Origin: Tubulanus polymorphus
Lineage: Eukaryota > Animalia > Nemertea
DNA: 64,000 nt
Direction of reading: 5' to 3'
Assembly: GCF_964204645.1 (NCBI RefSeq)
Contig: NC_134031.1
Span: 11,658,088 to 11,722,087, forward strand
In this document: one piece after another, positions 20,785 through 63,986 of the stretch
How positions within the stretch are numbered: the stretch's first letter is position 1
Layout: every line of letters starts with the position of its first letter
Translations under genes and position numbers: made by a program
Notes under the pieces: model-generated
The model's database searches: none
What the model was told of the DNA's origin: nothing
Seen by the model: the letters and a program-made list of their open reading frames with translations, nothing else

Positions 20785-21923
20785 AACCGGTTACTCTCGA
20801 TCTATGTCAAACCGCCTATATGTAATTGTATTAGGTTGTTTACAAAAGCATCTGTCGCACGTTATATTCAGTTGAATGGGGTGTACCTCATTTGAATATT
20901 GATCGAATGTGCTATTTCAGTTGAAAAGGATTAATCAATTACATCACAAAGGAACATCTGTTGCACAGACAGTGTTTAGCAAGTGAATAACTGGCAGTTA
21001 TAAGCGCGCAGCACATAAGCATAGGAACGTATAGAATATTCTCTCTATAAACACAATTTTAGGAGTTTACAGTTATAAATGTAAGTACTGTTTTTGTTGT
21101 TATTAAGGAGTTGGGAAACGTTAAACTTGTAAAACTTACCCTGGTAAGATGCGCCACAAATGGCTATGTTTAAGTGCTGTAATTAATATTTTACAACTAC
21201 AACTTCAAGTTAGTTTTATTCTACGCTAGATATTTATCTTTTAGATAACAAAATGAAGACCATTTGAATCAAGAAAGTGAAGATGGATGGATGTGGAATC
21301 AGAAATTATGGATATTTCAACTCATGAGACTGTAGCCGTTTAGCCATACTGTATAGGCTTTCAATGCATTACGTTTGTCGGAATTTCAATTGCGTCATTA
21401 AGCTGTTGTTAATGACACACAGTGACAGATGTTGTATTATACTTTATTGATTCCTGCATTCCACGCATACCTTACCGCTCCTCTCAGGAGCGGCTTGGAA
21501 TGTGGAAATCGATAATGATTGTAGAATAAAATATATATGTGTTTATGAAATAGTATTTCCACCAGTCGTTTCTTTGAATTTATTTTCAGTTTTAGGATTT
21601 ATTATCGAGAATCCGAAATGACTTATCTGGACAGTTATAATTACTGCTCCTAATAGATAGACAATAGTAGTGAGATATTAAATCCTAATTTAAATAAAAT
21701 ATAATAAAAAAAACAATAACTTCAACTAGCTAGTGAATTCTATAATATTTTTAATATTTTCTTTTCAAAAGAGAATACTTTATATCACAAATAAAAAATA
21801 CTAAAAAACAATAACTAATACTAAAATTCTTTACCTTTAACTAAGTTAGTATTAATCTAAAGAGATACTGGTATCATTTTATAATACTTATAATATTTTT
21901 CTTATTAAATTTCTCTAATATAA

Positions 21924-22526
21924 ATGTCAAAGAAATCGAGTAAGAATAGTATTGATATTGAAAAAACATTAGATGATTTGGGTATTAGTGATAATAAGGA
22001 TCCAGTTGTTTCTAATTCTATTCAAGCTAATTGTAATATAGATTTTGAATACTATTTATATTGTAAGCATCATCTTGAATTATTAATTGCTGGCGGGAAA
22101 TCTAAGGATTTCTTGGGAAAAATTTTAACTTATCAAGAACTAGATGCTATGAAACCCGATAAAGTAATAAAATATTTTAAGATTTATGAAGAAGCTAGAT
22201 TAGCTAGAATAAATGATTCTATTTCAGATGGTATTGTCAAATGTTATTCTAAGTTATGTAACCAGTTAATACCAATTGATGATGAAAATAAATTATATAG
22301 TGATTTGAAAAATGACTATTTAGTTATGACTGAATTACAAAAATGGGTTGGTTATGCTTCATTCCAATTAGGATCGGTTATGACATTAATTTCTACTGGT
22401 GTCATAACATTTTCGAAAATCAAACCTATGGAATATAAATCAGGTAAGAACGAAACAGATGTACTACAACCAAACGTCGAAACAGAAAATGAATCAGAAC
22501 AAAAATTAACTAAAATAAATGAGTGA
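21924..22526 (+). CDS. Conserved Polinton hypothetical protein (200 aa)
   Basis: Intact ORF with TAAATG start and a GGKSKDFLGK...LYSDLKND pattern, upstream of the integrase. Confidence 0.7.
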   Translation: MSKKSSKNSIDIEKTLDDLGISDNKDPVVSNSIQANCNIDFEYYLYCKHHLELLIAGGKSKDFLGKILTYQELDAMKPDKVIKYFKIYEEARLARINDSISDGIVKCYSKLCNQLIPIDDENKLYSDLKNDYLVMTELQKWVGYASFQLGSVMTLISTGVITFSKIKPMEYKSGKNETDVLQPNVETENESEQKLTKINE

Positions 22527-22889
22527 TGGCGTTAAGAAAAAGCCTAGATCCGAGAAACAAATTAAATGGGCAAGAGAATTAGGTAAAAGATCTGCAGAAT
22601 TAAAAAAGCTAAGAAAAAGAAATTAACTGATATAAATGAATCACAGACTTTATCTGATATTGATTCAAATAACAATCCATCTAATTCTTCTAATGCTGGA
22701 AGTAATAATTACTTATATATTACAATTGGATTAGTAACAGTTATTATATTCTCTGGTGTAATATATAAATATAAGTATAAATCTGATTATAACAATAATG
22801 ATTCCCATGATAATAAACCTATCATACCAGAAAATAAGTCAAATCATAAAACCATTGAAACTAAATCTAAATTATTATTAATGGATTAA
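22519..22889 (+). pseudogene. Small basic protein with a predicted transmembrane segment, frameshifted
   Basis: TAAATG start; MSDGVKKKPRSEKQ... then YITIGLVTVIIFSGVIY in the shifted frame. Confidence 0.5.
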
Positions 22890-22895
22890 AAGAAG

Positions 22896-23987
22896 ATGAA
22901 AAAAGAACAATATTTAAGAGAGTTATATTATAACCCAGAAAGTGAAGTATCATATTCTTACGTTTCAGAACTACGGAATAAAATTAAATCTGATAATGAA
23001 AATAGTAATATAAAATATAGTGAACTAAGATTATGGTTACAAAATCAACCAACATATCAAATTCACAAGAAAATGGATAAAACTTATTTAACAAGAAAAG
23101 TTATGGTTTAATATATTGATCAACAATGGCACGCAGATTTAATTGACATGAAGAACTTAGAAGAATACAACAAAGGATATTTCTGGATACTGAATGTTAT
23201 AGACATATTCAGTAGATACGCATGGTCAATTCCAATCAAAAATAAAACTGGTATAGAAGTAACAAATGCTTTTAAGAATATATTTAAAGAAGCTATTCCA
23301 GATAAGATACAATTTGACGAAGGTAAAGAATTTTATAACAAACATTTCAAAAAACTATTATCTGATAACGATGTAGAATATTTTTCAACACATTCAGATA
23401 AAAAAGCATCTATTATAGAAAGATTTAATAAAACATTGAAAACTAGAATGTGGAAATATTTTACTGCTAATGAAACATATAAATATATCGATGTGTTAGA
23501 TGATTTAGTGAAAGGTTATAATAATTCTAAACATAGTTCTATAAATATGAAACCTATACAAGCTAGAAAAGAAGATAATTCAGAAATAGTTTGGAATAAT
23601 TTATATGGCGCGTTTGTTACACATGATTTCGGCGAACCTAAATTTAAAATAGGACAACACGTAAGAATATCTAAATATAGAAAAACTTTTTATAAAGGTT
23701 ATACCCCTAATTTTACAGAAGAAATATTCAAGATTAAAAAGATAATATTAACTAAACCTTTTGTTTATAAACTAGAAGATCTAAAAGATGAAGAAATATT
23801 AGGTTATTTCTATGAACAAGAATTATCACTTGTACCAAATCCAGATGAAATAGAATACAAAATAGAACAAGTATTGAAAACAAAAACTCTTAAAGGAAAA
23901 AAGTATTCTTTGGTGAAATATAAAGGATATGATGATAAATTTAATGAATGGATTTTATCTAGTAAAATTAAAAGAATAAATGAATAA
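22896..23987 (+). pseudogene. Retroviral-like (rve) integrase with C-terminal chromodomain, one frameshift near 23105
   Basis: QWHADLIDM, IDIFSRYAW, QFDEGKEF, IERFNKTLK; chromodomain YKIEQVL...LVKYKGYDDKFNEWI. Confidence 0.93.
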
Positions 23988-24589
23988 AGATTTATTTATA
24001 TTTGAACCGCATAATATGTTAGTTACTGGAGTAACCAATTGTGGTAAAACACATTTCATATTAGATTTGTTAGAAACTATTTATAAGAATCATTTTGATA
24101 ATATAATATTATTCTGCCCTACTTATGAAATGAATAAAACATATAATAGAGATATAGTTAAGATAAAAAAGTTTAATATATTAAATCCTAAAACAGTAAA
24201 AGAAAATTTAGATAATTGTATAAAAATAGCAATTGATACTTATAGGATCAAATACATTATTCATTGTAGATGATTGCGCAAATTTACATGATTCAAAAGT
24301 GAGAGAAAGTGAGATATGTTATCTAGCTTTCTCTGGGAGACATTTCGGGATAACAACATGGGTTTTAAATCAAAAATATAATTCAATTGTTAAGGACTTT
24401 AGGGAGAATATAAGATTTCTAGTTTTATTTTATAACAAAGATAGAAAATCTATGCAACAATCATTGGAAGAAAATCAAATTATACCTACTGAATTACATG
24501 ATGAATATATGAATAAATTAAAGAATAATAAAGGTTCAGAATTATTACTGAGACTACAATTTCCCTATGAATATAAATTTATAAAATAA
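23980..24589 (+). pseudogene. A32/FtsK-like genome-packaging ATPase, frameshifted
   Basis: Walker A GVTNCGKT, Walker B LFIVDD, GRHFGI motif. Confidence 0.9.
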
Positions 24590-24592
24590 AAT

Positions 24593-25033
24593 TTATAATT
24601 TGGAATATTATAGAAACTAATTTATATATCTATGTACTAGACGTACGAGTAAGAAAGTAAGATTCTTGCCAAGAAAGTAAGAAAGTAAGAATCTTGGTAA
24701 GAATTCTTACGTACGTCTAGTATATAGAGATATAAATTAGTTTTATAATAATTATTCTAAATTTAAATTATAAAAATGAATAAATTATATGTTTTCTCTT
24801 AATCAAAATAAAAATAGATTATATTATAACTATTTCTATACTTAGATTAATAATTTTATGTTTTTAATTTTTATGAAAACTAAATTATATATCTATGTAC
24901 TAGACGTACGAGTAAGAAAGTAAGATTCTTGCCAAGAAAGTAAGATTTCTTGGATTCTTGGATTCTTACCAAGATTCTTACGTACGTCTAGTATATAGTT
25001 ATATAAATTAGTTTTATGATAATTATTCTAATT
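24593..25033. repeat. Two tandem palindromes at the junction of convergent gene blocks
   Basis: Arms AAACTAA(T/A)TTATATATCTATGTACTAGACGTACG and its complement, around AAGAAAGT-type loops, at 24593-24775 and 24871-25033. Confidence 0.9.
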
Positions 25034-25419
25034 TTGTTTCTAATATATTTATAAAATCATCTCTGTTTATATCTAATTCATCAAAAGTCTTAGTCTTAAG
25101 GTAGATTTATTAATTTTAATTGAGCCATCTTAACATAATAATTAGTAGGTATATTAGCTTTTTCTCTTAATTTTTCTAAGTATTCATCAAAATCATCATA
25201 ATCAAAATCAAAATGATATCCAAAATTATCAGATAACTTAAATCTATTTTTCTAAAATATAATAATTTATATATTTGTTTAGGATTATCTTCTGCATAAG
25301 CTAATAATTTATCAAATAACAACTTATAGAATATATATTATTGGTTAGTTTTAGGATTAAAATATCTGATATATTTATTAAGGTTATTTAACAATGGTAT
25401 CATACTCACCATTTTATAA

Positions 25420-26197
25420 ACATTAATTAGATGTAACTTTGATGTATAATGAGTATTTTCATCAACAGGTTCAATTTTCTTATTACAATATTGACACGTT
25501 TTATTTCTTTCTATTTCTTCTAATTTCCTTTCATTTTCGATATGCGCTTGAGATTTTTATGTTTAGAAAAATTACTTTTAGAAATATCTTAATTACAAAT
25601 GTTACAATGTTTTTTAGAATCATCAATTGATTCATTATCATTAGTTTCAATTGTATCAACATTATCTGTTATATTATCTATGGTATCATTTGTTTCAATT
25701 GTATTAACATTATCTGTTATATTATATATGGTATCATTTGTTTCAATTGTATTAACATTATCTATGATATTATCTATTATATTATTATCAGATATATTAT
25801 TATCATTATTATTCTTTTCTTTTTCTATATGTTTATTTGATTTCTTATGTGATGCCCAATTTTTATATGATATATATTTCTTACATACATCACAATATTT
25901 TTCATTTGTCTTTATGGTTTTGATATCAGGTTCAATCTTATCATTATTAGATGTAGAAGGTATTACATTATTAGATGTAGTAGGTATTACATTATTAGAT
26001 GTAGAAGGTATTACATTACTTAAATTATCAACAACACCACATTTATTATTATCGATTTCTATTAGTTAAGTTTTATAAATTTTGAAAATAGGATCAAATA
26101 TCAAAGCTATATTACAAGGTATTACATAATATAAACTATCATTATTTTCATGTGTATCGATGTATGGAATATGTTTATATACTTTACCTCCTTCCAT
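25420..26197 (-). pseudogene. Zinc-finger protein with short tandem peptide repeats, degraded
   Basis: TAAATG start at 26197; NNVIP(S/T)TS x3; KYCDVCKKYISYKNWASHKKSNKH; ITDNVNTIETNDT-type repeats. Confidence 0.55.
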
Positions 26198-26229
26198 TTA
26201 TTATATAAATTTTTATTAAAGTTAAAATT

Positions 26230-27073
26230 TTAATACATAACACTATTTAATTGAGAATTTATAATATTTAATTGCGCGTCAGATATTATATAAATGTGCA
26301 TTTTAAAATTTTTGATTCCTTTATTCTTTGTCATGAATAATTGTATTCCATCTTTAGTGTTCTGTAGTTTTTTTCCAGGACCATGTAATGAATTATCCTC
26401 TGTTGTTCTAAAATCTAACCATAATGCATATTTATTTCCGGTATAATAATCAATTTGATTAATATTACAATTTTCAGATGATTTTACTTTTTCATTCATA
26501 AAATGTTTTCTAATTTCTGGCCATTGATCAATCATTCTCATTCCTTGACAAAATATTTTATTTTCTATTCCTTCGATAGTTATTTCTACTTTTGTTATTT
26601 CAGGATTATAATAATTATCAACATTTATTGCACCATTAGTATATGTTGCAATGGTAAAAAATATTAATATACCTTTAATAGATCTTCTTGGGAAGTTAAT
26701 ATTCTCATTAATAATTTCATCATTTGCATTAATAGTAACGGTTTTAAATTTATAAATAAATAAATAAATTATAATCATCTAATGAGAAAACTGTTTTTGG
26801 GCCAATCTTTATTGTTAATTTTTTAATCAAATATCTCCCAACATTATCAACAACATAATTATTATTATTACCGATTACTTTTATATCGGCTGATAAATAA
26901 ATATTATTTGGAACATAAAAAGTATTTTGTGTTAATCGAGGAATTCTAACATATAAAGTTTCATCAGGATTAATATTAGAAGGGTTATGAGTAATTATAT
27001 GATGTGATCTTTCTGCTTTAATAGCATTAGATATTCTATGATTCTCAGAAGGATTGATATAACTCCCACTCAT
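26230..27073 (-). pseudogene. Major capsid protein (double jelly-roll), internally deleted
   Basis: THNPSNINPDETLYVRIPRL...RRSIKGIL...YNPEITKV...ALWLDFRT...ISDAQLNI; lacks ~400 nt present in 62732-63986. Confidence 0.75.
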
Positions 27074-27077
27074 TTAT

Positions 27078-28449
27078 TTAACAAAAAAATAGAAAAACTG
27101 TAATTAAAAATAAAATAATATGTTCAGCAGCAAAGTTAATAAGGTTTCCTGCAGATTTCAATATAAAACCAACAATTGATGCAATAATTCCTGGTAAAGC
27201 TGCAGCAGATTTTTTAGATAGTTCCCATAAATATTTTGCTAATTTCGTTAAACCATCCTTAACTTTATCTTGTATAGAATTATTATTATCTGGGGGTTTA
27301 TCTGGTTTATTGGGAGTAGGTGTAGATTTTAATGAATTTGATAGTGCTAAACAAATTGTTGTAAATAACATAGTTACAGCTGTTAGAATTGAAAGAATTG
27401 TTATTCCTTCTAATTTAAATAATAATCTTATTCTATCTTTCAATGATATTTCAGAATTTGGTTTTATCAACAAATCTTTAAAAACATCTTTTAATCTTTT
27501 AAAATTATTACCATATTCTTTTAATAATATATCTCTTTCACCTTTCAGTACTTCTTAATTATCTTTTAAATTATTAATTTCTTTTTCTAAACGTAATTCT
27601 TTTTGCCTATATTCCATTTCACCAATTGCTTGATGGTCTAAATCATACTTTAGTTGTTCTATCTCTTTATTTTTATCAGTTTCTTTTTCTAAAGTACTAA
27701 TTTTAATATCTCTTATACTTTTATTGTGTGCAATTTTATCAGCTTCATTTCTTATACTAATAATTTCTCTGCTTCATCAAAAAAAAAATGTAAAAGTTTT
27801 TCAGTTTAAACTTCGGTTGATTTAACTTTACTAGTTTTGGAATTATCAGCTTCTTTAGGAATTTTTTTTTGTCTTAAATTTTCATTAATTATCTTCTAAA
27901 TTTAACATTTTCTTTATTAAAATCTTTTCTATTTAGTTTTATCTCTCGTTCTGTAACATCAATTATAACATCATTAATGATTTTCTTAATTCTAGATTGT
28001 TCTAATTTAATTAAAGTTGATTTTGTTATTATTTTATCGAGACTTTTATTAGAAGAAATCTTAAAATAATAGTCATCTTTCAAATGCCAATAATAATCAC
28101 CATTTGAATATTTTAAACCTTCTACTAAATAATCCATACCTTTATTTGTTATATTGAAACCAGATTTTTTTAACATTGGTTAAAATTCATGAGTAATTTC
28201 ATTATATTTTAATTCTTTTTTTGTTATTTCTGGATCTTCATTTTCAATATCTATTCTCGATTTAGCTCCTCTAATATATTCATCTGTTGACGGGGCTTTA
28301 GAACCAGGAACAACTTCTGGTAAATTAGTATTATATTCTGTTTTATTATCATTACTAAAACTTGTTTCATCAAAATCAGGTGGTTGTTCATCACTTATAC
28401 CAGGTTCATCTAAAGGATCCATTGTAAAATCTTCTCCACCTTCTGCCAT
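27078..28449 (-). pseudogene. Large coiled-coil protein with C-terminal transmembrane segments
   Basis: Fragments homologous to 61246-62688; hydrophobic GITILSIL and ALPGIIASIVGFIL stretches. Confidence 0.65.
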
Positions 28450-28465
28450 TTACATAATAAAAAAA

Positions 28466-29782
28466 TTAAAATTTAAAATATAATATTCCTCCGATTACAA
28501 TTCCTATACAAGTTATAGCTAATTTAGTATTTTCATGGGATTTATTATCATCATTTAGTTTAATTATTTCATGTTTAATATTATCAGTTTTTATATCTTC
28601 TGATGTATTGTTATCTTTTATTTTAGAATCATTATTTAATTTAATATTATTAGTTTTAGTTTCTGTTGATTGAATATGTTTTTTATTTTTTTCACCTTCC
28701 ATTAATTTTGGTTCAGTAATAATCTTTTTATTTTTTATCATTCAATCCAAATGAATTATTTGTTGTTGCAGTTCTAATTAGATTATTATAACCAATTATA
28801 TTTCCCATCTTTAATACTAAATCATTAGAAATAATTAATAGATTAGGGCCTATACAATAATTTAATCTAATATGTGATTTATCTAAATAATTTTGATATC
28901 TTACAATGTTTTCTGGAATCGATCTATTTTTATCATTATGAATTGAATCTTCAAATAATACTTTAAATTGTTTCTGCGCATCGAATGAAGTGTTATCATT
29001 TCCAATTATTGGGGATCTTGTTTCAACTTGCGCACCTAAAATACATATCAAATAAGTTCTAATAGATTGATTTATTCTTTGTATACCAGTTTTAGTAAAA
29101 CCTTCACTATTTTCTAAAATGAAATTAACCCAACCATTATTATTTTGTTGTTGTATATCATTATAATATTTCGGTAATTCATTCCAATTTAGTGTTCTTA
29201 TATCTGAATTTGTCATTATTTTTCAAAATTCTTTAGTATATAATATTCCTAATCCACCCATTGTTCCAATTTTGCTCTAAAATCTTTATTTGAATTAATA
29301 TTAAATTCATTACATATTTTATAAAATTTAGAAAAATTAATATTATTATTCAATTCTTTAAAACATTTTGAACCTGGTAAAGGACATTCTAATTCATCTT
29401 ATATTAATTTTATTTGAAAATAAGTATGAAATCTAAAAAGTGATAACATCAATGGTAAACTTGGTTTGTTTAAATGATCATTCCAACAACCTGTTGTTGC
29501 ACAATAAACAGCAAAATTTAATTGGTTCTGCCAATACTTCATATTAGATTTTAATAACCATTGTTTTGCCTCATTCAAATTTTTAAAATTAATTGTATAC
29601 ACATGAAATATATTTTCCATCTTTACATGAAAATTATTACTTTCAGTAACATAAATATATAAATCAATTAATGAATTTAAAACTTCATTTCTATATGAAA
29701 TATCTTTATTAAAATCTATTGCTGGAATATTATATTTAATTGATCTATTATATTGGAAAGCTTTTGGAAAACTATCTACCAT
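28466..29782 (-). pseudogene. Conserved Polinton hypothetical protein with C-terminal TM
   Basis: QLNFAVYCATTGC and INQSIRTYLICILGAQ motifs; homologue at 59840-61229. Confidence 0.65.
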
Positions 29783-29798
29783 TTATATAATAAAAAAA

Positions 29799-30224
29799 TT
29801 AATAATTTATTAATTCTTTTAATAATTTATTTTGTTCTTCAACTGTTATATGACCATTTAAACTAATTATATAATCTAGTGTATTTTTTAATTTATTAAT
29901 TTCTTTTATATTAGTTTTAATTTTTTCTTTATTACTTTTTATATTTAATTTTGAACTTATACTAGTTAAAACACTTGAACTTAAACCTAGCACACCAATT
30001 GATATAGCTAAAGGTGTTAATGGACTGAATATTGCTAAAAATGTAATTACAGAACTAATTGTAACCGAACCACTTATAATAAGATAATATATAATTTTAC
30101 TTTTTAAATATTTTTTCTTTTTTATCTTTAAGTCGCTTTCAAATTCTAATATTTGTTCTTCTAAATATGTTTTTAATTTAGTTTTATTTATATCATGAGG
30201 AATGATATCAATATTATCATCCAT
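29799..30224 (-). CDS. Small two-TM protein (141 aa)
   Basis: Intact ORF with two hydrophobic helices; homologue at 59389-59823. Confidence 0.7.
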   Translation of the reverse strand: MDDNIDIIPHDINKTKLKTYLEEQILEFESDLKIKKKKYLKSKIIYYLIISGSVTISSVITFLAIFSPLTPLAISIGVLGLSSSVLTSISSKLNIKSNKEKIKTNIKEINKLKNTLDYIISLNGHITVEEQNKLLKELINY

Positions 30225-30244
30225 TTATTTAGCAAAAAAAATTA

Positions 30245-30667
30245 CTAATTAGTAAATCTATATGCTACAAATATAACAATAACAGTTCCGCCTAAAATCC
30301 ATATTATTTCATATTTCTTCTGTTCATTACTTGGGGTACAATAATCTGATATTGTAGGTTTATGTAGATGTAATTTTTCTTTATTGGTTACCGCGTTATA
30401 TAAACTCATTGCATCATCAACTGATTGAAAATCTCTATGTGAAATCTTCTGATCATACAATTCCTTGTTAATATAATCCATATAGTTTTGTCTCTTTTCT
30501 CTATATTCTTCTGCTGCTTTATTGTATTTCTCTAATGCTAAGTTATGTCTTTTTTGTTCTGTTAATGATCCATTTTTATCAATATGTTTAAATAAATATC
30601 CACCACCAGTAAATGCTAAAGCGTTAACAATTGCCGATCCTATAATAGTTATAACTGCGGAAGCCAT
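30245..30667 (-). CDS. Small membrane-associated protein (140 aa)
   Basis: Hydrophobic N-terminus (IVNALAFTGG) and C-terminal TM; homologue at 58947-59369. Confidence 0.75.
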   Translation of the reverse strand: MASAVITIIGSAIVNALAFTGGGYLFKHIDKNGSLTEQKRHNLALEKYNKAAEEYREKRQNYMDYINKELYDQKISHRDFQSVDDAMSLYNAVTNKEKLHLHKPTISDYCTPSNEQKKYEIIWILGGTVIVIFVAYRFTN

Positions 30668-30691
30668 TTATTTAGTAAAATAATTATGTAT

Positions 30692-35995: not shown

Positions 35996-36031
<36 letters not shown>

Positions 36032-51189: not shown

Positions 51190-54100
51190 GGAGAGAATAA
51201 GACAGAACAAATTGATGTTAATGAAAATCAATATTATTGTCCATATTGTAAAAAATACATTGATAAATCTCAAAAATCGCGTCATGAAAAATCTTCAAAT
51301 CTAAAATATAATATAAAAAATGTTATAGATTTTGAAACTTCAGATAATTCCAATGAAAGAAAAGAACGATTAGAAAATATGAATTTGGATGAAATAAAAT
51401 GTGAAGTTTGTAATGAATTTATAGTAAAAAGGAATTATAATAGACATCTCGAATCACAAAAACACCATCAAAATTTGAGTAATACTGTTTTAGGAAAAGA
51501 TTATTTCGATGATAAACCTCAAAAAGTAAAAAAACCAACTCCAAAAACTAAATCCTTTAGAAACATTACGTAGTAAAATTGGTCCTGCAGCTATTATATT
51601 TAGATTTTTTAAAGGTACAACAATAGAAGATTACAGTAAATTTAATGAAATGATAGAAAAATACTAGATTTGGTAACAGATGTTGAATATCCAAAAATTA
51701 GTATCTCTGGGAAAGTAAGTTTTTTAAAGTCAGAAGAGAAAATGGATTATAATATTCAAACACTCTCTGAAGAAATAATTTCAAAAACGCAAATAAAAGA
51801 GAAGTTAGAAAAAATATTTAATGAATTTAAACGTCATATTGAAGAAAGATATTTTGAGGGTTCTGGTTTATCATTAAATGAAGTTATATTTTTAGATTTA
51901 AATGTTTATAATACAAAAAGGAATAAAACATCAAAAAGTAAAACAATGTTTAAAAATGATTCAAACTTTACAACAGAAAAGGATATTAAAGCATCATCTT
52001 ATATTAAATTACCATTTACAACAAAAGCAGTAATAAATGTTCAAAATGAAGATAATAAATGTTTTCTATGGTCAATTATTAGTTGCTTACACCCAACAGA
52101 AGATATTACGCATAGTTTTAGAATAACAAATTACCGGAAATATGAAACATTATATAAAATTGATCAATATCCAGTAACTATAAAAATGATACCCAAAATA
52201 AAAAAAAATTAATAAGTTAAAAATAAACGTATTCGAATTAATGCAATTACCAAATACAAAAGGTGAAAATATTAAAGATTATACTTTGGAAGCTTTATAT
52301 TTAACAGAATATTATGATGATGAAAATGCTATAGATTTGTTATATTACAAAAAAGATGAAAATGAACATTATATGTGGTAAAAACAAATTGATTTATTCT
52401 TTAGAACAGAAAGTGATTTTAACAGTCATAAAATTTATCTATGTAGAAAATGTTTATCTAAATTCAGAACTGAGAATGCGTTACTAAAACATAAAGAATT
52501 ATGTGATAATAAAGATTTTTGCAAATTAATAATGCCAACAGAAAAAGATTATAAATTGAAATTTACTAATCATAAATTTAAAAATATTGTTCCATTTGTA
52601 ATTTATGGGGATTTTGAATCGTTGAATAAAGAATTAACTGATCAAGATAGTAAAGAAATATATAACAAAAAGCAATTATTAAAATCAATGGATAAAGGAA
52701 ATGAATTAAATGAAGACACAACACAAGACCCGCCAATTATAAATACAATTAAAAAAGTTCATCTAAGAGCTGCTGCTTACGGAATTTATATAAAATCAAA
52801 TTATCCTGAATTATATGAAAGTCGATATATTTCTTTTAGAGGTGAAAATGTAGTTAATGATTTTTGTGACAAAATGATTGAATTAGAAAGTGATTTTGCA
52901 AAATTATTAAACAAAAATAAAAGAATAGTTATGACAAAAGAAGATGAAATTGATTTAATTATGCAACTCATTGTTGTTATTGTGAAAAACGTTTTTATTC
53001 ATTTGATAAAAAAGTTAGAGATCATGATCATTTAAATTCAAAATATCGTGGAGCTGCTCATGAAGATTGCAATTTACAAGCTAAGAAAGTTAATTTCGTA
53101 CCAATATTATTTCATAATTTATCAGGCTATGATACCCATCTATTTATAAAACAATGATCAAAGAAATTGGGCACAATTAATCAAGAAATAGAAGAATATA
53201 ATGCTATGAATGGTGTAAATGTAAGAAAATATGATTTTAAACTATTAGCTAAAACATCTGAAAATTATATTTCATTTCAATTTGGTTGCATTAGATTTTT
53301 AGATTCTTATAGATTTCTAGTAAGTTCATTAGATAATTTATCAAAAAGTTTAGTTGATAATGATTTTGTTATAACTCGATATTATTATCCAAATGAACAA
53401 GATTTTAAATTATTGAGATATAAAGGTGCAATTCCTTATTCATTTTATAAAACACACAATGATTTTAATGTAACAGAATTATTAAAAGATCAATTTTATG
53501 ATCAATTAAAAGAGGAGTATGTGAAAGATGAAGTGTTTAATAGAACATTAAATATTTGGAACCATTTTAAGATGAAAAATCATGGTGAATTAGTTGATTT
53601 ATATTTAAAATCAGATGTTATGATATTGGCTGACATATTTGAAAAATTTAGAGAAGTTAATTTGAATCATTTTAATGTTGATCCTTGTTATTGCTACTCT
53701 AGTCCTGGTTTAACCTGGCAATGTGGTTTAAAATATACAAATGTAGAATTAGATTTATTAAAAGAACCAGACATGGTTTTATTATTTGAAAAATCAATTA
53801 GAGGTGGAATTAGTGGTGTTATGGGAGATAGGTATTTTAAAGCAAATGATGAATATAAATTATTATATATTGACGCCAATAATTTATATGGTTGGGCAAT
53901 GATGCAACCTCAACCATATAAAAATTTTATATTAACAGAAGTTGAAAATGATGATAAAACTGATTGGGAAAGCGCAATTGCGAGTTTGAAAGATGAAGCA
54001 CCAATTGGTTATTTCTTTGTAGTTGATTTAGAATATCCTGAAAATATAAAGTTTAAAACAAGAAACTTACCTCATTGCCCAGAACATTTAACTGTAGATG

Positions 54101-56187
54101 ATAGTTATTTAAGTGAATACCAGAAGAAAATAAAACCGAAAGATCATGTTTTTACAGAAAAATTAATACTTACTCAAAATAATAAATACAATTATATTGT
54201 TCATTATAGAATGTTAAAATTTTATCTAAAACAAGGAATGAAATTAAGGAAAGTACATAGATATATTGAATTTAATCAATCGAAGTGGTTAGAAAAATAT
54301 ATAGATTTCAATACTCAACAGAGAACCATATCAAAAACAGATTTTGAAAAAGATTTCTTCAAATTAATGAATAATAGTTTTTATGGTAAAACATGCGAAA
54401 ATATTAGAAATAGAAATGATATTGAATTAGTAAATAATTCTGAAAGATTAAGACATTCACAATCAAGTCCTAGACATTTAGGAAATAAAAGATTTGAAGA
54501 TTATTTAAAAGCAGTTAAATTAAAAAGAACGTCAATGAAATTTAATAAACCTATATTCATTGGTTCAACTGTTTTAGAAGTATCAAAATTATTAATGTAT
54601 GATTTTTATTATAATGTTTTACAACCACTTTTTGGGGAAAAGCATATTGAAATATTATATTTTGATTCTGTAACAGCTGACACCCCAATATTATTAAAAT
54701 GTAATGATAAAATATTGATAAGAAGAATTTCAGAAATAATTCCAAAACAAAATGAATGTTATATTTCATATGATGAAAAAGAATTAATACAAATAAATGA
54801 ATTAATAGATGTTTGGACAAGAAATGGATGGAAAAAAATTAAAGAATATTATTAGACATAAAACAAATAAGAAAATCTATAGAGTTAGAACTAAATTAGG
54901 GTTTGTAGATGTTACAGAAGACCATAGTTTAATTAAACGAAATGGCGATGAAATAAAACCAACTGATATAAAAATTGGATATGAATTATTACATAAAAGA
55001 TTTTTCCAAAGAATGAATCATATGTCATTCGATGAAATTATTGATAATATTTATAATATAGAACCCGAAACATTAGAAGAAAAAGAATATTTTATCAAAG
55101 GATCTTTCATGGGTGATGGTTCAGCAGGTGTGTATAATTATGTTTGGGGTAATAAATATTGTTAGTATTTATGCAATCAAGACTTGAAATTATTAGAAAG
55201 AATTAAGAAATTCTGTGAAGAAGTTTATTCACATAAAACATTTAGAATCATGGATGTTATGAAATCATCAGCAGTTTATATAATACTTGTAAATAATCCT
55301 AAAGATTTTGCTATAAAATATAATGATGAATTCTATATTCATGCAATAGTGAAAAGTAATACTTCAACTAAAGAAAAGATAGTTCCAGATTATGTATTAA
55401 ATGCAAAAAATAATTTAAGAAAATGGTTCTTCATTGGATTCTACGCAGCAGATGGTGCTAAAAAATTTACAAAAGATAAAAAGATAACCTTTGCACAGAA
55501 AGGAAAAGTTGCTATATCAGGGTTAAATATATTATGTAATTCATTAGGCTTCAATATGAATATTGGATTGATTAAATCTAAACCAAATTGCTTTAATTTA
55601 AGCCATACAGAAAAAGATTTAACTGAAGAAGTTAAAGATTTATTTGAAATATATAACCCAACAGATAATGTTTATGATTTATCAACTGAAGATGGCACAT
55701 TCAACTGTGGATTTCCATTAATTTGCTTCAATACGGATGCGTACATACTAAAAATCAAGACAAATGACATAACAAAAGACTTAAAAACATTAAAACATCA
55801 TTTTGATTTTAGCAATTATCCCAAAGATCATGAACTATTTAGCAATGATAATAAAAAGATTTCTGGTAAATTTAAAGATGAATTAGGGGGTGATGAAATG
55901 ATTGAATTTGTTGGGATAAGAAGTAAAATGTATAGGTACAGAATAAAAGATCATGAAATAAAAAGTTAAAAGGAATAACAAAACATGTGGTTGATAAACA
56001 TATAGAATTTCAAGATTATATAAAGTGTTTATATAACTCAATTGTAATGAAACATAAAATGAATTGTTTAAGATCAGAAAATCACGAGATGTACATTAAT
56101 GAAGTTGAAAAAACTAGTTTGAATCCATTTGATGATAAAAGGCATATTTTAGATGATGGTATAAAAACATTACCTTATGGCCATTAA
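51187..56187 (+). pseudogene. Divergent pPolB of P4 containing an intein
   Basis: C2H2 fingers, DNKCFLWSI, YGDFES, RDHDH, YIDANNLYG, KLMNNSFYGKT, YFD[intein]TDAY, NPFDDKR; several frameshifts and stops. Confidence 0.95.
54667..55732 (+). mobile_element. Intein with LAGLIDADG homing endonuclease at the PolB motif-C (pol-c) site, ~355 aa
   Basis: Block A SVTADTPI, block B VDVTEDHSL, block C FIKGSFMGDG, block D KIVPDYVLN, block E FFIGFYAADG, block F VYDLSTEDGTF, block G ICFN|T. One +1 frameshift near 54840 and one TAG at 55163-55165. Confidence 0.95.
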
Positions 56188-57513
56188 AACAGAAAATCAA
56201 TATCATCATACTCGAAATCACTATTGGCTTCTTCATTTTCATTTAATTGTTCTTGTATAATTTGTTTAGGTTCTTCCATTTCATTTTTCTCATTTAAATA
56301 AAGTTCTATCTTGTACCACATTTCATATCGCTCTCTTTGTTTCTTTTTGTTTGTTAATTCGTCAAATGGAATTATAATATCGATGTTTAAATAATTTACA
56401 ATCTTATTTAAAAAGAATTCATAATTAATTGAATCTGTTATTCTATTTTCCAAATGATACATTAATATTTGTTTGAATGTTTTTTTTTATATTTTCCATA
56501 TCTTCTTCTGTTAATTTAGGTTTTTCATAATAATCGTTAAATAATAAATATAAATACATTTTCTTTTGTTTTCTGTTAAATGTTGATGGAATAATTGTTT
56601 TTATAATATCTTTTTTAGTTATTTCACCATTTTTATTTTCTATTATTTTCATTTTTTCAAGCCATTGCATATATTCTGGTGTATGATCTTCTATAGAAAA
56701 TATTTTAAAAATTTCATCTAGATAAATTAATTTTGGTTCTATGAGAAAATCTCTAGTATTTTCTTCACCCCATAAATTCTTTTGCCATCCACAATCAACA
56801 CAAAATAACACAGTACCTTCTTGTCTTAAATCGCGTAATTACATTGTGGACATTTTCGTTTATAATTTATTGGTAATAGATCTTCATTAAGCTCTTGGTA
56901 TTTTCTTACGTTTTCTTTATGTTTTATTGTTCTATTATGTAGATTTGAATTACTTGTTGTAATAATCAATTTACAATATTTACAATAATATGTTTTTCTT
57001 GTTAATTCATTATATTGTTTTTCTAACTTTTCAACTGTTTCTTTATTATCTGGTAACGTTTTCTCATATTTTATTTTTTCTAATAAATTATTTTTTCTTT
57101 CATTGAATTCAGTTTCAAATTAATTAGAAATTTTATCTATATGTACTTTACGAAATTGATGATTCTCCCAATCTTCTATATTTTCAGGGCTATATTTTAT
57201 TCGACAAGGCTCACAGAAATGATCTTTTATATTATCCTTATCATAGAATAAGAAAGGTCTTTTCCAAATAATGTCAGGTTCAACTTCAACAGAATTACTA
57301 TTACTTTCATTACTATCAACATTAGCCGTTGCGCCATTAATTTTACACTTCTCTGAATGTTTTTTAACATAATTTCTTGAGAATAATTTATTACATTTTG
57401 GACAGTTTAGTTTAGGGGGTTTATAATTTTCATCATGTTTTTTCATATGTCGAGCCATATTACTTTTTTCTTAGAAGTTCACCACAAATTTCACATGCTA
57501 TCTTCTCATCCAT
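56184..57513 (-). pseudogene. Multi-zinc-finger ORF(s) specific to the P4 module
   Basis: TAAATG start at 57513 inside the right IR; CEIC...HMKKH, CPKC...HSEKC, CEPC...H...H, CKYC, CPQC and CVDC motifs; broken by stops and frameshifts. Confidence 0.6.
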
Positions 57514-57550
57514 TTATTAGGGAAAAAAATTACTTGTGGTGATGAGTGGT
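57511..57550 (-). repeat. 40-bp inverted repeat, right copy
   Basis: CATTTATTAGGGAAAAAAATTACTTGTGGTGATGAGTGGT. Confidence 0.9.
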
Positions 57551-57571
57551 AATTTTTTTATGTTATAAATA

Positions 57572-58321
57572 ATGGTAGAATTAAAAGAATACAGAATATT
57601 TGTTGATTCTAGAAAACTTACAAATTATCAATCACATAATTTAATAGTTCAATTAGATAGAGAATTTAAGAATTGTGTAGATTTAAAATTAGTTAATATA
57701 AGTTTATGTAACTCATTTTACAATATATCGGATAAAAGTTTTGATCATAGATTGTTTATGATTCATGATAAAAATATGGATAAATAGTATCATCTATTTC
57801 TAAGACCAGGATTATATAATTTAGAAACATTATCTCAAGAAATTAATAGAAGAGCTCGGTTAAAAGTGGGTGAATCTGTTGGGTTTAACATTAAATTTAA
57901 TAAAATTGATAGTACTTATAAAATAAGAATAAAGTTAACTAATGAACAATATAAATTCATAGTAAGAAAACCATTAGCTAAAATGCTAGGAGTTAATCCA
58001 AATAAAGTTTATTCAAATGTTTATACTACGCCAAATATAATACCTTTTACGCACTTCTATATTTATTGTAATTTAATTGATCCTACAAAAACATTCGAAG
58101 CAACTAAAGATACAATTTGTAATTCTGGTTTATTAAATATTTTACCATTAAAAAATGTCAAACAATTTGGAACTCAAATAAATTATAATTTAACAGAATG
58201 TGATTTAAAACCTTGCATTCCACATTTCAATAATTTTAAATTAGAAATAAGAAATCATAATGGTTATTTAATTGATTTGAATAACTGTCCTGTAATTTAT
58301 GAATTAGTTATAAGATGTTAA
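57572..58321 (+). pseudogene. Minor capsid (penton) protein, internal stop
   Basis: Homologous to the P1 and P2 pentons. Confidence 0.7.
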
Positions 58322-58343
58322 GAGTACTTTTTTCACTATATAA

Positions 58344-58700
58344 ATGAATATAACTGTTGGACCGAGTATATGTTTTGGATTTGATTTTAAACGTGAGAAA
58401 GAAATGAAATTTAACATTAATGATGTAATTACACATATCAAAAATATTGCATTTTCTAATGAAACAACATTTGAGTATGAAACAACAATAGATAAAGAAA
58501 CTTAAAATGTAGAAACGATTACTAATTTAATTAGAGAATCTTTAAGATTTTATGAATTAGATGAAGATTTTATCATCGATGATATTAAAAAAATAATAAT
58601 TGAAATATATACAAATAAAACTAGTAATGAAATAAATGTTGAATTAATCATCGCTAAGATAACTAAATATTTTGAAGATAGTAATTTTTTTGATAAATAA
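58344..58700 (+). pseudogene. MNITVGPS-family hypothetical protein, internal stop
   Basis: Nearly identical to the P2 copy. Confidence 0.6.
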
Positions 58701-58922
58701 ATGAGTGATAATAAGTGGATAATAACTGGATTATATAATGGAGCATTACTATCAGTTGGAACTGTTGGTTATTCAATGATATTTAAAAAAGTATTTAAAA
58801 TGGGAAGTGTTAATGTTGATAGATTTGATATAAATGATATTTTAAAATTAACATTAGCAGTTACTTTATCTAATTTAACTATTGATTATTTGGAAAAACA
58901 AAAATATATTCCTCCCATATAA
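58701..58922 (+). CDS. Small hydrophobic protein (73 aa)
   Basis: Intact; homologue of 30692-30913. Confidence 0.75.
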   Translation: MSDNKWIITGLYNGALLSVGTVGYSMIFKKVFKMGSVNVDRFDINDILKLTLAVTLSNLTIDYLEKQKYIPPI

Positions 58923-58946
58923 ATGCGTAATTATTTTACTAAATAA

Positions 58947-59369
58947 ATGGCTTCTGCAATTATAACGATTATAGGATCAGCAATTGTTAACGCTTTAGCA
59001 TTTACTGGTGGCGGTTATTCATTTAAGCATATTGATAAAAATAGTTCGTTAGGAGAACAAAGAAGACATAATTTAGCATTAGAGAAATTTGATAAAGCAG
59101 CAGAAGAATACAGAGAAAAACGACAAAGCTATATCGATTATATTAACAAGGAATTATATGATCAGAAGATTTCACATAGAGATTTTCAATCAGTTGATGA
59201 TGCAATGAGTTTATATAACGCAGTAACCAATAAAGAAAAATTACATCTATACAAACCTAAATTATCAGATTATTATACCCCAAGTAAAGAACAACAGAAA
59301 TATGAAATAATTTGGATTTTAGGTGGAACAGTTATTGTTATATTTGTAGCATATAAATTTACTAATTAG
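58947..59369 (+). CDS. Small membrane-associated protein (140 aa)
   Basis: Intact; homologue of 30245-30667. Confidence 0.75.
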   Translation: MASAIITIIGSAIVNALAFTGGGYSFKHIDKNSSLGEQRRHNLALEKFDKAAEEYREKRQSYIDYINKELYDQKISHRDFQSVDDAMSLYNAVTNKEKLHLYKPKLSDYYTPSKEQQKYEIIWILGGTVIVIFVAYKFTN

Positions 59370-59388
59370 TAATTTTTTTTCTAAATAA

Positions 59389-59823
59389 ATGGAAGATAAA
59401 GTTGATAGTATTGATATTATTCCTCATGATATCAATAAAACTAAATTAAAAAACATATTTAGAAAAACAAATATTAGAATTTGAAAGTGACTTAAAGATA
59501 AAAAGAAAAAATATTCAAAAAGTAAAATTATATATTATCTTATTATTAGTGGTTCGGTTACAATTAGTTCTGTAATAACATTTCTAGCAATATTCAGTCC
59601 ATTAACACCTTTAGCTATATCAATTGGTGTATTAGGATTAAGTTCAAGTGTATTAACTGGTATAAGTTCAAAATTAAATATAAAAAGTAATAAAGAAAAA
59701 ATTAAAACTAATATAAAAGAAATTAATAAATTGAAGAATACACTAGATTATATGATAAGTTTAAATGGTCATATAACAGTTGAAGAACAAGATAAATTAT
59801 TAAAAGAATTAATAAATTATTAA
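59389..59823 (+). pseudogene. Two-TM protein, frameshifted
   Basis: Homologue of 29799-30224. Confidence 0.65.
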
Positions 59824-59839
59824 TTTTTTAATTAAATAA

Positions 59840-61229
59840 ATGGTAGATGGTTTTCCAAAATCTTTCCAATATAATAAATCAATTAAATATAATATTCCAG
59901 CAATAGATTTTAATAAAGATATTACATATAGAAATGAAGTTTTAGATTCATTAACTAATTTAGAAATTTATGTTACTGAAACTAATAATTTTAATGCAAA
60001 GATGGAAAATATATTTCATGTATATTTAATTAATTTTAAAAAATTGAAAGATGAAAAACAATGGTTATTAAAATCTAATATGAAGTATTGGCAGAACCAA
60101 TTAAATTTTGCTGTTTATTGTGCAACAACAGGTTGTGGAATTAGTTGGAATGATCATTTGAATAATTCTAAATATAAATTAATTCAAAGTTTATTTAGAT
60201 TTCATACATACTTTCAAATCAGAATAATATTAAATGAATTAGAGTGCGCTTTACCAGGATCTAGATATTTTAAAGAATTAGATAATAATATTAATTTATC
60301 AAAGTTTTACAAAATTTGTAATGAATTTGATATAGATATAAATAATTCTGATTTTAGAACAAAAATTGGAACAATAAGATCACTTCCTTGCCCTAAAAAG
60401 ATTGCAGAATATTGTGCACTTCCCATACCATCTAATAGTTTATATAATATCTGTAGTAATAAATTAGGTTATGGTAAAATAGAAACTTAGGATTTAGAAA
60501 CATTAAATTTCAATAAATTACCGACATTTTATGATAATTTAAAACAAGAAGACAATAATGGTTGGGTTTATTTCATTTTAGAAAATAATGAAGGTTTTAC
60601 AAAATCAGGTATACAAAGAATAAATCAATCTATTAGAACTTATTTGATATGTATTTTAGGTGCGCAAGTTGAAACAAGATCCCCAATAATTGGAAATTTA
60701 AATACATCATTTGATACACAGAAACAATTCAAAGTATTATTTGAAGATTCTATTCATAATGATAAAAATAGATCGATTCCAGAAAACATTGTAAGATATC
60801 AAAATTATTTAGATAAATCACATATTAGATTAAATTATTGTATAGGCCCTAATCTATTTATTATTTCTAATGATTTAGTATTAAAGATGGGAAACATAAT
60901 TGGTTAACAATAATCTAATTAAAACTGCAACAATAAATAATTCATTTGGATTAAATGATATAAATAAAAAGATTATTACTGCTCCAAAATTAATGGAAGG
61001 TGAAAAAAACAAAAAACACATTCAATCAACAGAAACTAAAACTAAGAATAATAAATTAAATAATGATTCTAAAATAAAAGATTACAATACTACAGAAAAT
61101 ATTAAAACTGATAATATTCAACATGATATAATTAAACTAAATGATGATAATAAATCCCATGAAAATACTAAATTAGCTTTAACTTGTATAGGAATTGTTA
61201 TAGGAGGAATATTATATTTTAAATTTTAA
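59840..61229 (+). pseudogene. Conserved hypothetical protein with C-terminal TM
   Basis: Homologue of 28466-29782. Confidence 0.65.
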
Positions 61230-61245
61230 TTTTTTTATTATATAA

Positions 61246-62688
61246 ATGGATGTAGAAGGTGGAGAAGATTATGAAATGGAAAATATGGGAAATAATAATG
61301 ATGCCAATACTAACGATGATGATTATATGACTGCTGATACTCATATTGATAATGATGGTAATGAATCATCATATAATTCTAATTTAGCAGAAAGTGGTTC
61401 TAAAGCCCCATCAACAGATGAATTGATAGAAGAACTAGATCGAGAATACCTCCTGAAAATTTAAATCAAGGAAAGAGAAAGTTTTGAAAATTATGAATTT
61501 ATGTATGATTTTCAACGTGTATTTAAAGATTCTGGATACAATATAAATAATAGAGGCGCCAGACTTTTAGTACAAGAATTAAAGTTTTTAGATGGTAAAT
61601 ATTATTATCATGTGAAAGATAAATCGGATTATTATATTAATATCTCTAATAAAAATCAAGACAAAATAATAGCAAAATCAACTTTGCTTAAGTCTGACTC
61701 ATTACTACCTAGAATTAAGAGAATAAGAAATAGTAATGAAATAGAAGATGTAACACAAGAAGAAATAAATCAAAATAAAAGAGTATTTAAACTAAGAATT
61801 AATAAATTATTTGAAACAATCAAAGATAATCCAGAAACAGAAACAACTTCTGAACAGAATATAAATTCCAAAACTAGTAAACTTAAATCAAATAAAGTTC
61901 CAATTGAAAAACTTTTACCGAATGGATTAATTGATGCAACAGATCAACAATTAGAAGATTTAAATAATATATTTTCTGATAAAGCAATTAGAGAGATTAT
62001 TAGTATAAGAAATGAAGCTGATAAAATTGCGCATGATAAAAGTATAAAAGATTTAAAAATTAGAACTTTAGAAAAAGAATTAACTGATAAAAATAAAGAA
62101 ATAGAACAATCAAAATTAGATAGAGATAATAAAGTTATTGAAGAAATTGAATTTAAAAAAAGAAATGCATATTTAGAAAAAGAAATTGATGATTTAGAAT
62201 ATAACATAGAATTACAAAAAGAAGAAATTAAATTATTATTAAAATCATATGATTATAATATTAATAGATTAAAAGTTATTTTTAAAGATTTGTTGATAAA
62301 ACCAGATTCTAAAATATCATTGAAAGATGGAATGAAATTATTATTTAAGTTAGAAGGAATAACAATTCTTTCAATTCTAAGAGCTGTAATTATGTTATTT
62401 ACAACAATTGGTTTAGCAATATCAAATGCTTTAAAATCTACTCCTACTCCAAATAAACCAGATAAACCCCCAGGTAATAATTCTATACAAGATAAAGTTA
62501 AAGATGGTTTAAAGAAATTAGCAAAATATTTATGGGAACTATCTAAAAAAATCTGCTGCAGCATTGCCAGGAGTTATTGCATCAATTGTTGGTTTTATAT
62601 TGAAATCTGCAGGAAACATTATTACTTTGCTGCTGAACATATTATTTTATTTTTAATTACAGTTGTAAGTGCTATTATTTTGGGTTAG
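61246..62688 (+). pseudogene. Large coiled-coil/TM protein
   Basis: Homologue of 27078-28449. Confidence 0.65.
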
Positions 62689-62731
62689 TGAATATGATTA
62701 AAAATAGATAATTAATTTTTTTGTTAAATAA

Positions 62732-63986
62732 ATGAGTGGGAGTTATATAAGTCCTTCTAAGATTTCTAGAATATCTAATGCTATTAAAGCAGAAAGATCA
62801 CATCATATAATTACTCATAATCCTTCAAATATTAATCCCGATGAAACTTTATATGTTAGAATTCCTCGATTAACACAAAATACTTTTTATGTTCCAAATA
62901 GTATTTATTTATCAGCCAATATAAAAGTTACGATAATGATGGTCATGATAATAATTATGTTGTTGATGATCTTAGGAGATATTTGATTAAAAAATTAACT
63001 ATAAAGATTGGTCCAGAAACAGTTTTCTCATTAGATGATTATAATTCATTTATGCATTATAAAGATTTATGGTTTACTAAAGAAAATAGAAATAATATGA
63101 TATTTCAGGGTATTCAATCGGAAAACCATAATAAATTAAGATCAGGAGCTAATGACGCAATAGTAACTCGTGCCACAGATAATTTGATTAAAAAGATTTA
63201 TGGGAGCAAATATAAAATTCCATTAGACTTTGAATTGATAAATAATAATGCACCTTTATATAAATACGCAATTCAAGAAGATATTATATTTGAGATAACA
63301 TTTGCTCTTGTAAATGAAATTGTATTATCTAGCGTTGTTAAAGATATGGGTTATAAATTATCGAATATATGTTTAGAATATGACACAGTAACTAATGAAA
63401 ATATTGCTAGCACAATTCAAAGTCAATACAATCAAGGATTTTCATTATTATATGATTATATTGATAAATTTAAAACTGTAACTATTAATGCAAATGGTGA
63501 AATAATTAATGAGAATATTAACTCCCCTAGAAGATCTATTAAAGGTATATTAATATTTTTTACAATTGCAACATATTCTAATGGCGCAATAAATGTTGAT
63601 AATTATCATAATCCTGAAATATCAAAAGTAGAAATAACTATTGAATGTATAGCAAATAAATTATTTTGTCAAGGAATGAGAATGATAGATCAGTGGCCAG
63701 AAATTAGAAAACATTTTATGAATAAAAAAAAAAATTATCTGAAAATTTTAATATTAATCAAATTGATTATTATACCGGTAATAAATACGCATAATGGTTA
63801 GATTTTAGAACAACTAAAGATAATTTATTACATGGTTCTGGTAAAAAACTACAGAACACTAAAGATGGAATACAATTATTCATGACAAAGAAAAAAGGAA
63901 GCTTAAATTTCAAAATGCACATTTATATTATATCTGACGCGCAATTAAATATTGTAAATTCTCAATTGAATAGTGTTATGCATTAG
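62732..63986 (+). pseudogene. Major capsid protein, full length but frameshifted
   Basis: THNPSNINPDETLYVRIP...YKIPLDFE...YKLSNICLEYD...RRSIKGIL...ISDAQLNI. Confidence 0.78.

Follow-up and report, generated by a model that had tools for sequence, protein, structure and literature searches.

In vaccinia virus, the T located 10 nt upstream of TAAAT is conserved among late promoters (PMC11980589), and intermediate promoters consist of an AT-rich core, a 12-bp spacer and TAAA (PMC12917281). Endogenous virophages and their helpers have promoter motifs in common, and these motifs track the helper (10.1101/2025.10.09.676808). TAAATG itself is mentioned in a virophage paper (PMC4722103), and polinton-like viruses (PLVs), some of them adjoining the Maverick-Polinton group 2 clade, have been found in entomopoxvirus occlusion bodies (PMC11296320). 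We analysed a stretch of 64,000 nucleotides from the nemertean Tubulanus polymorphus (NC_134031.1, positions 11,658,088 to 11,722,087; the window), which contains one Polinton family as five decayed pieces. Nearly all genes of this family start with TAAATG or TAAAATG at a fixed distance from a T-run or an A-rich core, and the same enrichment, spacing and two classes of upstream sequence are conserved across the lineage to which the family belongs. The feature is real and is explained neither by base composition nor by Kozak context or stop codon overlap. The initial annotation of the window had compared these starts with a poxvirus late promoter, and the resemblance turned out to be stronger than first stated, since it withstands AT-matched nulls, departs from Kozak context, rarely involves a stop codon and extends to two promoter classes.

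The initial annotation had reported TAAATG at nearly every Polinton gene start, and all 26 positions that it listed (Table 1) are the A of an ATG that follows TAA. The starts agree with the N-termini of homologues or with first-ATG starts of open reading frames (ORFs). Among 32 Polinton starts that could be placed, 26 have TAAATG, four have TAAAATG, one has the variant TAAATAATG (57572) and one, that of the integrase at 22896, has no motif. Both departures from the rule noted earlier were borne out: three genes for the protein-primed DNA polymerase (pPolB) start with TAAAATG (13242, 41280 and 49044), as does the gene for a protein resembling single-strand DNA-binding proteins (SSB) at 49440, and the integrase is an exception, with no TAAATG at its ATG, yet TAAAA a few bases upstream. 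Two further positions were left uncounted: 57575, which is not an ATG, and 25412, whose gene is uncertain. The 26 sites are not independent, as 15 gene families are repeated across copies E1, E2 and E4 and the fragment at 14600-18066; copy E3 carries TAAAATG starts only. Counted by family, 15 of 16 have the motif (binomial p ~6e-18). The background is much lower, with TAAATG at 96 of 1635 non-start ATGs within Polinton segments (5.9%), at 19 of 833 outside them and at 254 of 4291 first-ATG-after-stop sites in dinucleotide-shuffled Polinton DNA (5.9%). Comparison of starts with internal ATGs under an AT-matched null, the check proposed for the motif, thus gave a strong excess, which the sub-groups of relatives described below likewise display.

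Alignment of capsid proteins led to 43 metagenome loci. Starts were chosen without regard to the motif, by taking the first ATG of each ORF with an N-terminus alignable to a homologue from a second locus, which gave 98 starts in 29 loci; the other 14 loci, fragmentary or decayed, yielded none, and three antisense-ORF families were excluded. TAAATG is present at 66 of the 73 starts in 24 relative loci, which span 20-44% GC and a capsid identity down to ~30%, and at 54 of 1413 internal ATGs of the same relatives (summed rows). Each of seven sub-groups of relatives, at 22-41% GC, is enriched over its own background of 2.5-7.1%, and four of the seven starts without TAAATG still carry TAAA(A)T at the ATG or one base before it. 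The capsids of the relatives are 30-83% identical, and their gene order is shuffled. Searches for relatives among viral contigs gave nothing usable.

Upstream of the motif, the starts fall into two classes. A T-run, defined as at least four T in five positions 8-12 nt upstream of the motif's T, precedes 17 of 29 TAAA(A)TG starts in the window vs 8 of 128 non-start sites, and 43 of 78 starts vs 13 of 197 non-start sites in the relatives. An upstream T-tract had been described as common; this is correct for those 17 starts and does not hold as a general rule, since 7 of the 29 have an A-rich core instead, a group that the initial annotation had not set apart. The core of the vaccinia G8R promoter is matched in exact register with one mismatch at 41280, 13242, 32412 and 9321 and with two mismatches at 26197, 15391 and 49440. 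Within one mismatch, this core is found at 4 of 29 window starts vs 0 of 128 non-start sites, and in the relatives, with the register allowed to vary by ±1, at 6 of 78 vs 0 of 197; within two mismatches, it is found at 7 of 29 window starts vs 5 of 128, the feature being degenerate. In the window, T-class starts belong to genes for capsid and membrane-type proteins, and replication genes make up most of the A class, with some genes changing class from copy to copy. The window therefore has both features of a poxvirus late promoter, TAAAT(G) at the start codon and a T-rich element ~10 nt upstream, and in a subset of starts the AT-rich core, ~12-bp spacer and TAAA of an intermediate promoter.

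As compared to the vaccinia promoters (PMC11980589, PMC12917281, PMC5294985), the likeness consists of TAAAT(G) on the start codon, a T-rich stretch lying ~10 nt upstream in one class, TAAA(A) separated by a 12-nt spacer from an AT- or A-rich core in the other, and very short divergent spacers. The difference is that T peaks here 9 nt upstream of the motif's T (80%), not 10 nt (70%), and that the carrier of these candidate promoters is an integrating Polinton of 17-20 kb in which no RNA polymerase gene was detected.

A sister lineage of these elements starts its genes differently. The division of the loci into lineages was made after the motifs were known; with this division, the sister loci (L012-L015 and L026) have TAAATG at 0 of 25 starts, including 0 of 10 at 30% GC; instead, 14 of 17 distinct starts have a TATA no more than 14 nt away, as compared to 16 of 226 internal ATGs. 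In the capsid tree, TAAATG elements stand on both sides of the TATA group, which is unresolved as a clade, and the tree has two motif changes, although 20% of bootstrap trees give one. The sister lineage likely uses an asfarvirus-like late signal, as the late initiator of African swine fever virus (ASFV) is TATA and its late 5' untranslated regions (UTRs) have a median length of 9 nt (PMC7163114). This likeness, TATA just upstream of the start and short leaders, concerns the relatives and not the window; moreover, a TATA close to a start has less diagnostic value and might represent a box of a different type. Transpovirons share TATATA late promoters with pacmanvirus (PMC11788076). One TATA-type sister element encodes a Bcl-2 homologue (L012, 2448-2861; PF00452, E 2e-18), pointing to an animal host and to control of apoptosis.

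Eukaryotic starts favour a purine at -3. Host Kozak context was rejected as a source of the motif, as T occupies position -3 in 66 of the 73 starts of relatives; starts of the sister lineage have a purine there in 20 of 25 cases. An artefact of AT content and a first-ATG bias were rejected on the nulls for the window and the relatives and on the 30% GC sister loci. Coupling of stop and start codons was rejected as a general cause, the TAA being the stop codon of the upstream gene at 5 of 66 TAAATG starts. A divergent gene faces 22 of these 66 starts, and in eight divergent pairs only 15-30 nt separate the start codons; in the window, the penton start at 57572 diverges from 57513 (-) with a spacer of 58 nt. 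By our own reading of the published sequence, the vaccinia G8R scaffold has a reverse-strand TAAATG ~28 nt from its own start. At two loci, a pair of divergent genes has a head-to-head overlap of 22 nt (L020, 379-400; L024, 1597-1618), each TAAATG start sitting within the coding sequence of the other gene.

The zinc-finger gene of copy E4 encodes a VLTF3-like domain (Pfam Pox_VLTF3, E 0.006; intact relatives P0068 and P0069), a factor already known in some Polintons (PMC11131425). The domain is 40% identical over 53 aa to poxvirus-type VLTF3 and 22% identical to that of the sister lineage; the best VLTF3 match is a poxvirus-type protein for P0069 and not for P0068. Both lineages thus encode VLTF3-like proteins, which differ in type and are paired with different start motifs. 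Another 77 viral contigs that carry VLTF3-like genes, probably related to mimiviruses or phycodnaviruses, have TAAATG at 121 of 741 starts, with a T-run at just 5 of 120 of these; the sample held no verified asfar- or pithoviruses. A poxvirus-type locus has TAAATG at 5 of 11 starts. Within the viruses sampled, the full architecture looks poxvirus-like.

On balance, we consider it probable that TAAA(A)TG with its T-run or A-core is a post-replicative promoter of poxvirus type, that the RNA polymerase transcribing from it belongs to a large cytoplasmic DNA virus co-infecting the cell, and that the elements have a provirophage-like lifestyle. These Polintons and their relatives likely parasitise an as yet unidentified poxvirus-like virus. 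No polymerase gene came to light in the element itself, and the enzyme would therefore be supplied by the co-infecting virus, as in the case of mavirus-like endogenous virophages. The scanned ORFs of the family gave no Pfam match to an RNA polymerase subunit or to TBP, and the sole RNA polymerase-type Pfam signal was a single weak Rap94 score (E 0.02) in an ORF of the sister lineage. A poxvirus-type polymerase would initiate within TAAA, slip and add a 5' poly(A) leader; initiation with slippage at TAAA has been described for vaccinia and for yeast virus-like elements (PMC7163114, PMC6211774), and a leader made in this way would render T at -3 and the missing 5' UTR space harmless. The genes under intermediate-like promoters would chiefly be those for replication (pPolB, SSB-like, zinc-finger and HNH), and capsid and membrane genes would for the most part depend on the late-like class. 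Inside the helper's factory, the element would rely on its own pPolB for replication and on its own capsid for packaging, and it would persist in the host genome by means of its own integrase, as in mavirus. Its VLTF3-like protein may tune or pre-empt late transcription by the helper.

Several points weigh against transcription by such a helper. First access of a cytoplasmic polymerase to a chromosomal copy is left unexplained. The tree of VLTF3-like proteins is weak on poxvirus affinity (support 78, long branches), and no candidate aquatic helper emerged from two motif scans of viral contigs, one with 0 matches and the other, among the matches listed, with mostly phage-like contigs, one poxvirus-type locus and one virophage locus. 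A few small giant-virus contigs have TAAATG at 40-67% of their starts, and a Sputnik-type virophage contig (L072) has it at 4 of 7, which leaves room for a helper that is not a poxvirus. Genes are not tied to one promoter class, the pPolB of E4 and the SSB-like gene of L001 being in the T class, and the match to the G8R core may partly reflect AT-rich sequence, because that core is described as having no consensus (PMC12917281). Furthermore, the start-overlapping AATAAA (AATAAATG) is commoner in tandem (19/36) than in divergent genes (3/22), in rows that are orthologous and confounded by lineage; this is what a dual role as poly(A) signal would predict. AATAAA is not depleted on the coding strands (ratios 0.91-0.99, up to 5.6 per kb), which by itself speaks for the helper, as Pol II 3' signals are not avoided; yet that of the window's long interspersed nuclear element (LINE) is likewise undepleted (4 vs 3.9), which leaves the depletion test with a weak control. 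The terminator TTTTTNT is depleted on the coding strands (0.35-0.67), as is its antisense form (0.75-0.77), and was not used as evidence.

The main rival is a self-encoded factor that steers host Pol II: the zinc-finger/VLTF3-like protein would recognise the T-run and TAAAT in the nucleus as the element's own late switch, with no helper. This explanation stays alive because the element has its own VLTF3-like gene, and it draws on the pairing of VLTF3-like type with start motif in both lineages and on the occurrence of VLTF3 in the small Mriyaviruses and Zephyrviruses (10.64898/2026.06.19.733378). We nevertheless judge it unlikely. An initiator that overlaps the ATG, T at -3 and divergent starts 15-30 nt apart leave no room for ordinary Pol II leaders, and it is the virus's own polymerase that reads TAAA in vaccinia (PMC12917281). 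Poly(A) signals are not enriched at convergent gene ends (AATAAA near 5/26 vs 139/775 coding windows), and the VLTF3-like gene, which itself lies behind the same motif, could not start the cascade.

It is highly improbable, in our estimate, that the motif arises as a side effect of genome compactness and AT-richness, with stop codons or AATAAA overlapping an A-rich start and Pol II promoters lying inside neighbouring genes. AATAAA does extend across 27 of the 66 TAAATG starts, with the tandem excess given above, and five of the TAAs are true upstream stops; yet the motif is also found where GC content reaches 40-44% and at another 19 divergent starts, which have no AATAAA, while equally AT-rich sister loci are without it. 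T at -3 is a poor start context, the spacing of the T-run is fixed, and the A-rich core precedes pPolB beside the terminus, where an upstream gene is absent. A quite improbable source of the signal would be a poxvirus-related polymerase from a non-viral cytoplasmic linear element similar to yeast pGKL2, or inheritance of the motif from a helper-dependent ancestor with no such use today. Yeast virus-like elements, which derive from proto-Polintons (PMC11161782), do have a TAAAN initiator, slippage and stem-loop termination (PMC6211774), and strong hairpins are present at a convergent junction in the window and in L002-L004. No such cytoplasmic element, however, was seen in the window or the relative loci, and conservation of the motif despite 30-83% capsid identity and shuffled gene order argues for current selection rather than a relic.

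Among the systems described, the mavirus/EMALE provirophages and the Tetraselmis PLVs (10.1101/2025.10.09.676808) are likewise integrating pPolB/rve elements with their own capsid, which have a promoter motif in common with one class of large DNA viruses, the motif differing by clade. The elements described here differ from these in their capsid, which is of Polinton and not of virophage type, in their poxvirus-type motif, in that no helper was identified, and in their host, which is probably an animal to judge from the flanking LINE and Gypsy DNA. The entomopoxvirus-associated PLVs are Polinton relatives proposed to be hyperparasites of poxviruses, and some of their capsids adjoin group 2; compared by description, they differ in lacking an rve integrase or having a tyrosine recombinase (PMC11296320). 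In that paper, 'promoter' and 'transcription' occur 0 times. Maverick-Polintons of the Polintoviricetes (10.64898/2026.06.19.733378, PMC8502044, PMC11131425) share pPolB, rve integrase, A32 ATPase, both capsid genes, terminal inverted repeats (TIRs) and a 6-bp target duplication, and VLTF3 has been reported in some coral elements; no capsid protease was detected here, and the accessible parts of those papers do not describe promoter architecture. The yeast plasmids pGKL1/2 (PMC6211774) resemble the present elements in pPolB, AT-rich compact genes, a TAAA initiator and stem-loops at gene ends, and differ in having their own polymerase and an upstream conserved sequence and in being without capsid and integrase genes. 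No report of poxvirus-type promoters in animal Polintons was found in the openly accessible papers searched.

The Polinton copies are decayed relics in a window of 28% GC, flanked by LINE, Gypsy and satellite DNA. They have the structure and genes of Maverick-Polintons: the TIR arms of E2 are 97% complementary over 346 nt, with a 6-bp target-site duplication that matches at 5 of 6 positions; the polymerase is of the protein-primed type (PF03175, E 9e-18 for 53206-54855), other copies being ~72-76% identical in DNA; and both rve integrase and A32-like ATPase are present. Models of intact relatives give a double jelly-roll major capsid (pLDDT 75; Foldseek E 4e-15 to iridovirus/PBCV-1 capsids) and a single jelly-roll minor capsid, the latter a low-confidence model (pLDDT 51) that matches viral minor capsid proteins. 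The small gene beside pPolB possibly encodes a phi29-type SSB (score 0.85, a lead only), and several other small genes have hydrophobic segments. No protease family matched in the scanned ORFs, where decay or divergence could hide a capsid maturation cysteine protease such as that of group 1 Maverick-Polintons or adenain-bearing adintoviruses. The virophage-type major capsid of the Lavidaviridae was not found either: the L001 capsid gave no Pfam family match, and a Sputnik-type contig scored E 2e-93. By gene content alone, the elements are probably Maverick-Polintons of group 2.

Table 1. Polinton copies, genes, gene starts and promoter candidates in the window.
Feature	Position	Strand	Remarks
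E1, truncated Polinton copy	7831..13716	-	terminus, pPolB, SSB-like gene, penton, ORF126
Polinton fragment	14600..18066	-	partial pPolB and broken HNH-like gene, start 15391 (TAAATG, A-rich core)
E2, full-length decayed Polinton copy	20319..41925	-	~500 bp TIRs, 6-bp target duplication, LINE insertion ~36234-40656
E3, Polinton fragment	47768..49620	-	terminus, SSB-like gene (start 49440), pPolB N-terminus (start 49044)
E4, Polinton copy extending past window edge	51150..64000+	+	pPolB with intein-like insert, convergent zinc-finger/VLTF3-like gene, virion module
Small gene beside pPolB	8968..9321	-	copies at 32059-32412 and 49084-49440
pPolB	9532..13242	-	N-terminal zinc fingers, endonuclease VII-like insert; broken near 5' end
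rve integrase with chromodomain	22896..23987	+	one internal stop; PF00665 E 6e-8
A32-like packaging ATPase	23980..24586	+	broken; PF04665 E 3e-5; TAAATG start overlaps integrase end
Major capsid protein, second copy	26230-27073	-	broken
Zinc-finger and VLTF3-like gene	56184..57513	-	broken in several places; late-like TAAATG start
Minor capsid (penton) gene	57572..58321	+	broken; start variant TAAATAATG
Major capsid protein gene	62732..63990	+	frameshifted; intact relative folds as double jelly roll
Listed TAAATG starts	21924, 22519, 23980, 51187, 58344, 58701, 58947, 59389, 59840, 61246, 62732	+	
Listed TAAATG starts	8192, 8950, 9321, 15391, 26197, 27073, 28449, 29782, 30224, 30667, 30913, 31270, 32041, 32412, 57513	-	
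Late-like promoter candidate, major capsid gene	62712..62734	+	T-run, TAAATG
Late-like class starts	58344, 58701, 58947, 59389, 59840, 61246, 51187	+	
Late-like class starts	27073, 28449, 29782, 30224, 30667, 30913, 31270, 8192, 57513	-	
Intermediate-like promoter candidate of pPolB	41280..41306	-	A-rich core, 12-nt spacer, TAAAATG; same at 13242
Same intermediate-like class	32412, 9321, 26197, 15391, 49440		

The pPolB of E4 contains an intein-like insert (54703-55735, +) at the YFD|TD polymerase motif, which E1 and E2 are without. Its first residue is Ser and its last is Asn ahead of Thr, and it has LAGLIDADG-like motifs (Pfam Intein_splicing E 0.023, LAGLIDADG_3 E 0.021); PDB intein matches were weak, and a search for homologues of the insert gave no match. 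Homing endonuclease inserts are known in Polinton pPolBs (PMC11161782). A conserved gene of 442 aa had no match in an atlas lookup. In the close intact relative L001, a deoxynucleoside kinase gene (10340-10981; PF01712, E 2e-31) lies behind a late-like TAAATG start.

Each element terminus is a single long imperfect hairpin, of ~410 bp in E1 and E2 and ~120 bp in E3 (13287-13716, 41479-41925, 20319-20700 and 49470-49620); arm sequence varies by copy, and complementarity is kept. Other strong hairpins (z -8.5 to -15) stand at the convergent junction downstream of the ATPase (24589-24764 and 24852-25035), and the relatives have hairpins of other sequence at the same location (L002, 3688-3852; L003, 3044-3208; L004, 3121-3277). 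None was found at three other convergent junctions tested. The junction hairpins are candidates for a terminator or an origin. Near-identical promoter blocks of 35-45 bp precede different genes, which suggests that promoters serve as recombination joints in module swapping. One such pair is inverted and flanks the E4 replication module (51149-51187, + and 57513-57550, -), and another is direct and surrounds the SSB-like gene of E3 (49044-49085 and 49440-49480, -), where starts 49440 and 49044 share one duplicated A-core/TAAAATG block. Insertion of E2 interrupted a Gypsy element (18063-20372 and 41872-47770), the LINE inside E2 (36234-40656) has an internal duplication, and a 48/49-bp tandem array lies at 5520-6495.

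Virions of animal Polintons have never been seen, and how these elements express their genes and make virions is open (10.64898/2026.06.19.733378). A helper-dependent lifestyle, if true, would explain the missing virions. It would also carry the provirophage model over from protists into animals, and poxvirus- and asfarvirus-like viruses would be expected in hosts without known ones; the Polintons of all public genomes lend themselves to scoring for the motif. The broadest form of this idea, which we hold tentatively and at somewhat less than an even chance, is that a widespread lineage of integrase-bearing animal Polintons may be the provirophages of undiscovered poxvirus-type viruses of aquatic invertebrates.

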